Source of the DNA: a virus
Lineage: Duplodnaviria; Caudoviricetes
Virus record (IMG/VR): IMGVR_UViG_3300042558_004043
DNA length: 64,000 nucleotides
Strand: one strand, 5' to 3'
Numbering within the stretch: the first letter of the stretch is position 1; each line of letters opens with the position of its first letter. This document shows positions 38,345 through 39,185 of the stretch, one piece after another. The translations under genes and the position numbers were made by a program. A model generated the notes under the pieces. The model was given only the letters and a program-made list of their open reading frames with translations. It was not told where the DNA came from and did not search any database.

Positions 38345-39185
38345 TAAGATTATCCATTCAGTGAAAGTAACCTTCGGGTGATGACAACTGATAAAAGATA
38401 ATGGGCCGTGTATGGTCCTTAAATAAACTACGAAAGTAGGATAAAGTGACCTCCCCCGTGTTGAGGAGGTTGCGGTTTCGAAAGGAACTCGAGTACACAA
38501 GTGGGATATCACAAGACCTTTAGTACCGAGGGTAACACTGTAGGGAAAGTGGTCAGGTGACTTGGCAAAGTGGATTGTCAAGTTGAGGTGGGAACACCAA
38601 CAAGAATAACCCATAGGAATCAAGTAAGAAACGTAGCTCCAACTACACAATTGCGGATTCCAATACCGAAGGGGATTTAAAACCGAAAGGTAAGGTAGAG
38701 AACGAGTGGTGTCGCTACTACCCCTAAAGATGACCTACCAAGGTCTCTTTATGAAGTAATCTGAAAGTATGGAGATAGGGATATCTCACGGAGTAGTTTA
38801 GTATTTCGTCGCCCAAAAGGAGACGGAGCTTAAGGTGGACCACTACTCTGACACATCCACGACACAAATCTAAAATTATGAACAATAATTAAAGGAAAAG
38901 TGTCCATCAGGTTTGAGTGAAAGGTCACTACACAGTCACGGGTTGTCCGTGGCACAGAAAGACCCCAAGTCTAACTGTAGTTTTACGAAAAACCTTTAAT
39001 CCCGCAAGGATGAACTGGGGTGGCAACCTCGGAAAGAGTTAAGTAATAAGAGAGTAACTTAAACCTCAAGGAGTGGTAAACCTAAAAGACCGTGACTGAG
39101 AAATACTTCTCAAAAGGAAGTGGATAAGAAGGGAAACAATAATCCTTCAAAAGGTTCTCACTCAAAGCTGTAATCTCAGGCTTAG
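38345..39185 (+). ncRNA. large ornate structured ncRNA, GOLLD-like (~840 nt)
   Basis: no credible ORF; many GNRA/UUCG hairpins; 9-bp long-range helices 38912-38920/39158-39166 and 38933-38941/39090-39098; abuts a tRNA. Confidence 0.7.

Follow-up and report, generated by a model that had tools for sequence, protein, structure and literature searches.

A very probably full-length GOLLD RNA gene of the env-38 type in a large freshwater phage, with a boxA-like leader and an adjoining initiator-type tRNA

Introduction

GOLLD RNAs have been known since 2009. The representative from env-38 was resolved by cryo-EM as a 14-mer (D7) cage consisting of RNA only (PDB 9MEE; Kretsch et al, 2025; PMC12286853), and the sequence of the construct employed is given in Supplementary Table 4 of that study (PMC12286853). 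In this particle, the 5′ domain forms the cap (PMC12286853), the J13/15 linker is disordered inside the cage (PMC12286853, PMC12990946), and the two half-shells are united by the self-complementary kissing loops L21a and L21b (PMC12286853); the L20-J13/15 kissing interaction is intermolecular according to the GOLLD cryo-EM work.

A second kind of long, structured, untranslated RNA is relevant for the locus described here. The leader of rrn operons comprises a boxB hairpin and boxA and is the site of a NusA/B/E/G-SuhB antitermination complex; the published boxA consensus is GYTCTTTAANA (PMC5725501). In the searchable literature, no link was found of GOLLD with initiator tRNA, with an antitermination (boxA) leader, or with phage tmRNA.

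Results

The stretch of DNA analyzed here (hereafter, the window) comprises 64,000 nucleotides of an IMG/VR viral contig (IMGVR_UViG_3300042558_004043). The source record has 81,665 bp (81.7 kb) and is 28% complete according to CheckV, which is why the virus is considered a large phage. An earlier note, made from the letters of the window, had assigned a highly structured tract at 38345–39185 to GOLLD on the basis of size, context, and style. This assignment was borne out when the whole window was scanned with Rfam 15: RF02032 (GOLLD) matched at 38789–39182 (+) over model positions 1–416 of 416 with 321 bits (E 3.9e-91), that is, about twice the gathering score of 150 bits; size, phage context, adjacent tRNA, and two-domain layout fit as well. 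In a scan of the whole record, the match (320.6 bits) was its sole GOLLD. ROOL, the other giant RNA that the note had proposed to search for, had no match anywhere in the window at the gathering threshold, and neither had any other large-RNA family of Rfam for this tract. The 5′ half alone also gave no Rfam match, as expected, because RF02032 models the conserved 3′ domain only. Among 50,697 phage records, blastn found matches of tRNA size only, plus one of 138 nt (72%) in an uncultured 635-kb phage.

Five tRNAs are present in the window, one of them 14 nt downstream of GOLLD, and the neighboring genes match PHROG families; those around the RNA island encode a cREC_REC-domain protein, a ClpB-like AAA+ chaperone, an M20-type peptidase, and a nucleotidyltransferase with a peptidoglycan-binding domain (Table 1). 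The tract is indeed GC-richer than its surroundings (0.43–0.44 over 38350–39250 vs 0.28–0.34 in the flanks). Its description as ORF-free holds in the sense that no ORF is conserved: the one of 132 aa on the minus strand (38252–38650) contains stops in 73 of the 78 sequences compared (see below), and reading it as coding was therefore rejected. The fold predicted from the single sequence had a z-score of −4.7 and was better than 20 of 20 shuffles. The start at 38345 has to be revised; the transcript probably begins near 38309, and the structural core begins at 38401.

Table 1. Features of the GOLLD locus and its surroundings (positions are those of the window).
Feature	Position	Strand	Evidence and remarks
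Two upstream promoter-like modules	38097–38210	+	TATATTTGTAAA at 38097 and 38199 (exact motif matches); a GATTTGA-led hairpin comes after each copy
Proximal promoter, putative, Bacteroidota type	38273–38304	+	−33 TTTG (38273–76), 20-nt spacer, −7 TAAATTTG (38297–304); predicted start near 38309
5′-terminal hairpin TTCGGGAATGACCGAA, boxB-like in position	38313–38328	+	Stem covaries
boxA-like element GTTCTTTGAAA	38332–38342	+	Putative Nus-factor antitermination signal
Variable leader hairpins, including ACC-TTCG-GGT	38343–38400	+	Absent or different in many homologs
GOLLD 5′ domain	38401–38788	+	93 homologous loci; 90 of 108 predicted pairs with compensatory (double-sided) changes in the de-replicated set of 46 sequences; env-38 anchors
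GOLLD 3′ domain (P14–P27), part modeled by Rfam	38789–39182	+	RF02032, 321 bits; helices covary
Variable single-stranded linker (J13/15)	38851–38898	+	Gapped in the Rfam alignment; closing helix 38834–40/38902–08
Initiator-type tRNA-Met(CAU)	39200–39273	+	ARAGORN, Rfam; C1xA72, A11:U24, A73, no encoded CCA
Intrinsic terminator	39281–39305	+	AGGTGGG-GAAA-CCCACCT and T-run; hairpin 39281–39298
Phage tmRNA	39821–40198	-	Rfam RF00023, 93 bits; 636 nt beyond GOLLD; own terminator 39788–39815
M20-type peptidase and cREC_REC-domain protein, flanking the RNA island	41380–42204, 36486–36938	+, +	In the order of the coordinates given
ClpB-like AAA+ chaperone	42618–44666	-	Best genomic relatives 57–58% identical, on contigs of Bacteroidota MAGs

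Because RF02032 covers the 3′ domain only, the upstream 390–450 nt were subjected to a separate test of homology and covariation. Scanning IMG/VR with a degenerate motif of the 3′ domain yielded 120 loci, in 93 of which nhmmer detected homologs of the 5′ half (window 38330–38788), and in 108 of which it detected those of the 3′ half. After removal of duplicates, 77 distinct full-length relatives remained (851–915 nt, 58–98% identity to the window); all counts out of 78 refer to these plus the window. Covariation among homologs, on which the earlier note had made the reality of the structure depend, is present in both domains: RNAalifold and pair counts revealed compensatory changes in nearly every helix, including most of the pairs predicted for the 5′ domain (Table 1). 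In the control for the 5′ domain, canonical cells amounted to 94.9%, vs 76.9 ± 0.3% with shuffled partners and 38–40% when the partners were slid by one to three columns; double changes were present in 97 of 122 pairs, vs 67.7 ± 3.1 in the shuffles.

Four tetraloop hairpins had been pointed out in the tract, and three of them, CTAC-GAAA-GTAG (38428–39), GGTG-GGAA-CACC (38587–98), and ACC-GAAA-GGT (38682–91), are 100% canonical in 78 sequences; their stems show compensatory changes, and their loops hardly vary. The fourth, ACC-TTCG-GGT (38370–79), fared less well; it is situated in the variable leader and is 61–78% canonical in homologs. The two perfect 9-bp long-range helices claimed for the tract (38912/39158 and 38933/39090) are literally present, but do not withstand comparison. 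Their occurrence is at chance level, as ∼1.3 perfect 9-mer complements are expected per 840 nt (L^2/2 × 4^-9), and they are not conserved: the former is 61% canonical among homologs, and the latter 78% overall, with its central pairs between 12 and 66%. The minimum-energy fold of the single sequence appears to join the same two regions as the former helix. The strands pair elsewhere, and with covariation: 38909–18 with 39057–66 (99% canonical, 8 of 10 pairs covarying), 38935–42 with 38946–53 in a local hairpin (100% canonical), and 38924–28 with 39092–96 in a covarying pseudoknot. The strands that had been singled out are real pairing strands, only with the wrong partners.

Tertiary signals were extracted by mutual-information analysis and loop tables. 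Loop 38409–12 covaries with 38494–97 in five variants (UGUA/UACA, CCUA/UAGG, UAUA/UAUA, UCUA/UAGA, and CUUA/UAAG). Furthermore, the 5′-domain loop 38570–73 covaries with the linker at 38857–60, the linker at 38894–95 with loop 38965–66, and position 39125 with 39173; with the helices matched to the published numbering by position, the second of these pairings fits the L20-J13/15 kissing interaction and the third the L27-J24/26 contact. The helix closing the linker (38834–40/38902–08) covaries and is 98% canonical. Symmetric kissing loops require self-complementary motifs, and a short motif of this kind is contained in each of two adjacent loops, CGCA (39003–06; UCGA in some homologs) and GGCA (39022–25), which, going by their position, would correspond to L21a and L21b. 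The RNA is a member of the GOLLD family, its structure covaries in two domains, and tertiary and kissing-loop pairs are conserved.

Visible sequence anchors are common to env-38 and the window from 38401 to 39182. The env-38 construct, which omits the variable leader (PMC12286853), extends from the equivalent of 38401 to that of 39182. Both the anchors and the matching ends argue that the copy in the window is a GOLLD of the env-38 type. A 22-mer specific for env-38 was absent from the retrieved loci and from IMG/VR; thus, the likeness is expressed in visible anchors, not as pairwise identity.

Upstream of the leader, the TTTG and TAnnTTTG elements at 38273–38304 form a pattern which we take to be that of Bacteroidota sigma-A promoters. 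About half of the homologs have the −7 motif 32–34 nt ahead of a conserved GTTCTTTGAA. Upstream of GOLLD, copies of TA(n)ATTTGTAAA are located at 38097, 38199, and 38297; over the window, 26 matches to it (at most one mismatch) were counted vs 9.4 expected. The modules further upstream (38097–38210) may be additional promoters, or else what is left of alternative leaders of GOLLD. In four distant relatives (L008, L036, L044, and L019), a similar "gatttga...aggtgatgaaagatactcgg" leader directly precedes GOLLD, which suggests that the GATTTGA-led elements between 38097 and 38260 are exchangeable leader modules or small RNAs; one RNA contig of low depth spans 38156–38252.

The leader itself begins with a hairpin, the stem of which is retained in homologs with altered sequence (e.g., CGGAAATGTCCG, CAGGAAAAGACCTG, and GAGGGAAACCTC). 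The element following it, GTTCTTTGAAA, agrees with the gammaproteobacterial boxA consensus at 10 of 11 positions; at the single mismatched position, 19 homologs have the consensus A. GTTCTT[TA][GA]A is present at the 5′ end of 76 of the 77 homologs, mostly at the same position. Within the 64-kb window, exact GTTCTTTRAAA occurs only twice (38332 and 33600), in both cases just after a TAnnTTTG promoter heading an ORF-free RNA operon. Of the 19 Bacteroidota genomes sampled, 12 contain GTTCTTTGA 88–220 nt ahead of a 16S gene (chance ∼0.01 per leader). By its sequence and position, GTTCTTTGAAA may serve in boxA-type antitermination. The remainder of the leader is variable; many of the nhmmer alignments of homologs begin at query position 60–73, and one RNA contig skips 38329–38393.

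The other exact boxA match, GTTCTTTAAAA at 33600, belongs to a second ORF-poor, GC-richer RNA operon (33587–34644, +), which has a TAnnTTTG promoter at 33587 and contains tRNA-Lys(CTT) and tRNA-Ile(TAT), with ∼420 nt between them and no Rfam family there at E ≤ 0.1. Among the phage's own proteins is a NusG-like one of 173 aa (5451–5972, +), which may cooperate with the boxA leaders; its NusG N-terminal domain scored 68.8 bits, and a weak KOW match was just below the cut-off.

The promoter type and the matches of the ClpB-like protein in MAGs hint, if weakly, at a host from the Bacteroidota. None of the four Bacteroidota MAGs with the closest ClpB-like genes contained GOLLD, but these genomes are incomplete, and this finding is therefore no evidence of absence. 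Of 19 Bacteroidota genomes, only 2 had the strict pattern TTTG-N18-22-TAnnTTTG ahead of the 16S gene, and the pattern is thus of no help for assigning the host.

The tRNA-fMet and the terminator that the earlier note had placed downstream, the former 14 nt after 39185, are both real (Table 1). The tRNA is initiator-like because of its CAU anticodon, C1xA72, A11:U24, A73, and two G:C pairs among the three of the anticodon stem that characterize initiators (G30:C40 and G31:C39; 29:41 is A:U). In contrast to this copy, a second tRNA(CAT) encoded at 28642–28716 (+) has a normal G1:C72 pair and is of the elongator tRNA-Met or tRNA-Ile2 type. The 17-nt gap between GOLLD (39182) and the initiator-like tRNA contains nothing resembling a terminator or promoter. 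As a terminator follows right after the tRNA, and as the same layout is found in 15 homologs, it is plausible that GOLLD and the tRNA are cotranscribed, as had been proposed. The order of elements at the locus is promoter-like motif, hairpin, boxA-like motif, GOLLD, initiator-type tRNA-Met, and terminator.

Linkage of GOLLD to tRNAs was surveyed for 291 tRNAs across the window and the 77 loci, in which related phages are dependent samples and phylogeny is uncorrected. Within 300 nt of GOLLD and on the same strand, 46 tRNAs were found, 30 of which have the anticodon CAT. A Watson–Crick pair 1:72 is missing from 26 of these 30, vs 10 of the 26 more distant CAT tRNAs. When the loci were clustered at 85% identity, an initiator-type tRNA adjoined GOLLD in 16 of 44 clusters (10 upstream, 6 downstream). 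The tRNA adjoining GOLLD is thus preferentially of the initiator type.

The tmRNA of the window was missed by ARAGORN but found by Rfam; its tag, as read from the resume context, consists of 22 aa (GNVINKLSAVGLIRTEENISVA) and ends with VA instead of the usual LAA. In searches with nhmmer and ARAGORN, 33 of 78 distinct loci had a tmRNA no more than 4.1 kb from GOLLD, in several arrangements (e.g., L072, L078, L024, L021, and L006): convergent and downstream in 21 loci, on the same strand and upstream in 9, the smallest distance there being 80 nt. Caulobacter phage phiCbK (L227) has a permuted tmRNA adjoining GOLLD, with tRNA-Met genes nearby. The linkage to tRNA-fMet and tmRNA could be due just to the general clustering of RNA genes in RNA islands of phages.

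Twenty public sequencing runs contain the stretch; most are lake-water DNA, and six are river metatranscriptomes. For 35500–42500, contigs from three RNA runs and from a single DNA run were compared with the window. Those from RNA runs that are identical to the window over 38524–38631, 38677–38805, and 38992–39124 had word depths of ∼1,900–4,400, and the summed RNA depths over 38308–39243 were between 2,500 and 22,000, sums to which related phages contribute. Contigs of the flanking genes had depths of 2–8 in the same RNA runs, and the DNA run was flat at ∼15. The tmRNA region was represented by RNA contigs in three metatranscriptome runs (depths 26–167). The RNA contigs resolve neither ends nor strand, infection stage, or a GOLLD-tRNA junction, and leave most of the flanking sequence uncovered. 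Because ends and strand are lacking, because the runs were selected for GOLLD, and because relatives were summed, the data are a hint that GOLLD RNA is very abundant in river metatranscriptomes.

Discussion

Taken together, we consider it very probable that a large freshwater phage carries, at ∼38309–39185 (+), a GOLLD RNA gene that is full-length and of the env-38 type. Its use may be envisaged as follows. Host RNA polymerase would initiate near 38309 at the Bacteroidota-type promoter, TTTG-N20-TAAATTTG. The nascent leader of hairpin and boxA would then recruit factors of the NusB/NusE/NusG type, as on rRNA operons, and the polymerase so loaded might allow the ∼1-kb untranslated transcript to evade Rho-dependent termination and to fold cotranscriptionally. 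Transcription would pass the tRNA and stop at the terminator (39281–39305). Cleavage by RNase P at the 5′ end of the tRNA would free GOLLD, the core of which (38401–39182) may self-assemble into a cage comparable to the D7 14-mer, a property transferred here from env-38.

Being an unannotated addition to a known family, the copy in the window is in itself an ordinary finding. What the analysis adds is the native architecture of the transcription unit and the repeated association with initiator tRNA and tmRNA, both of which provide clues to GOLLD function. Three regularities emerge over the locus and its 77 relatives: the hairpin-boxA leader is nearly universal, an initiator-type tRNA-Met is the preferred neighbor, and a tmRNA is often near, in phiCbK as well. 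In conjunction with the very deep metatranscriptome contigs, they point to mass production in the manner of rRNA and to a link with translation. Given the preference of the gene for initiator tRNA and tmRNA as neighbors, the cage might act on the translation apparatus during infection; this is a guess, and we regard it as tentative. A more specific version is correspondingly more doubtful: the phage would possess a translation RNA module, in which a boxA-led unit resembling an rRNA operon gives rise to GOLLD and initiator tRNA, with tmRNA adjoining, and the cage would have translation itself as its target during takeover; it might, for instance, hold initiator tRNA, deliver it, or engage ribosomal subunits.

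Other explanations for the RNA have to be weighed as well. The GOLLD cage could be an anti-defense or decoy particle, such as a sponge that soaks up nucleases of the host or RNA-binding defense proteins, its position reflecting nothing but RNA-island clustering. A sponge would be well served by very high RNA abundance; the literature assigns GOLLD no function (PMC12286853), and 45 of 78 loci have no tmRNA and 28 of 44 clusters no adjacent initiator tRNA. Yet, no defense-related neighbor is present at the window locus, the adjacent tRNA is specifically of the initiator type, and linkage to tmRNA recurs in the unrelated phage phiCbK, for which reasons we consider a decoy unlikely. Much less probable is that the long RNA has no function of its own and serves the tRNA-fMet precursor as an elaborate 5′ leader or as a scaffold for processing. 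The short, terminator-free gap and the identical layout in 15 homologs would agree with such a role, but 62 of 77 homologs keep the whole covarying structure with no tRNA within 300 nt downstream, the tRNA is upstream at other loci, and the env-38 cage is ordered in the absence of any tRNA (PMC12286853). That the tract is not GOLLD at all, and is instead a new RNA class, a ROOL-like RNA, or protein-coding, as the 5′ half devoid of Rfam matches and the 132-aa ORF on the minus strand might suggest, is practically refuted by the RF02032 match at twice the gathering score (with no match to ROOL and silence of the 5′ half expected), by the interruption of the ORF in 73 of 78 homologs, and by the compensatory nature of the substitutions in helices, as assessed with the covariation controls.

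Regarding GOLLD as the product of a boxA-led unit invites comparison with rrn operons. Both have a promoter, a hairpin within ∼25 nt, and then GTTCTTTGAAA, followed by a long untranslated structured RNA, and a tRNA is part of the unit; the 16S leaders of Bacteroidota contain the same boxA-type motif as the GOLLD leader. Unlike in rrn operons, no rRNA follows in the GOLLD unit, no boxC was identified, and the phage has a NusG-like gene of its own. ROOL, too, is a large RNA carried by phages in the vicinity of tRNA islands and forming cages of RNA only, but its sequence and fold are unrelated to those of the RNA in the window, and it is an octamer (PMC12286853).

The GOLLD of phiCbK (JX163858.1) is, like that of the window, phage-borne, with a tmRNA beside it on the opposite strand and tRNA-Met(CAT) genes near. 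It differs in its score (165 bits), in carrying a tRNA-Gly inside the linker, in the permuted form of the tmRNA, and in its alphaproteobacterial host. A boxA-like motif was not found upstream of it with the pattern used (GYTCTTTRA), from which the alphaproteobacterial boxA may differ.

The closest described relative is env-38. The core in the window is shorter (∼782 nt vs 833 nt), as are its linker and some of its hairpins, and the window shows the native 5′ leader (∼38309–38400, with hairpin, boxA-like motif, and variable hairpins), which the env-38 construct omits. The tRNA-Met is situated 14–17 nt downstream of GOLLD in the window, whereas env-38 is described as lying downstream of a Met-tRNA (PMC12286853). 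In both, a 5′ domain of ∼390–420 nt and a 3′ domain of ∼395–415 nt have shared anchors along their length, a variable linker comes after the first hairpin of the 3′ domain, and adjacent hairpins can, by position, be equated with P21a and P21b; both also have a tRNA-Met as neighbor and are of aquatic metagenomic origin.
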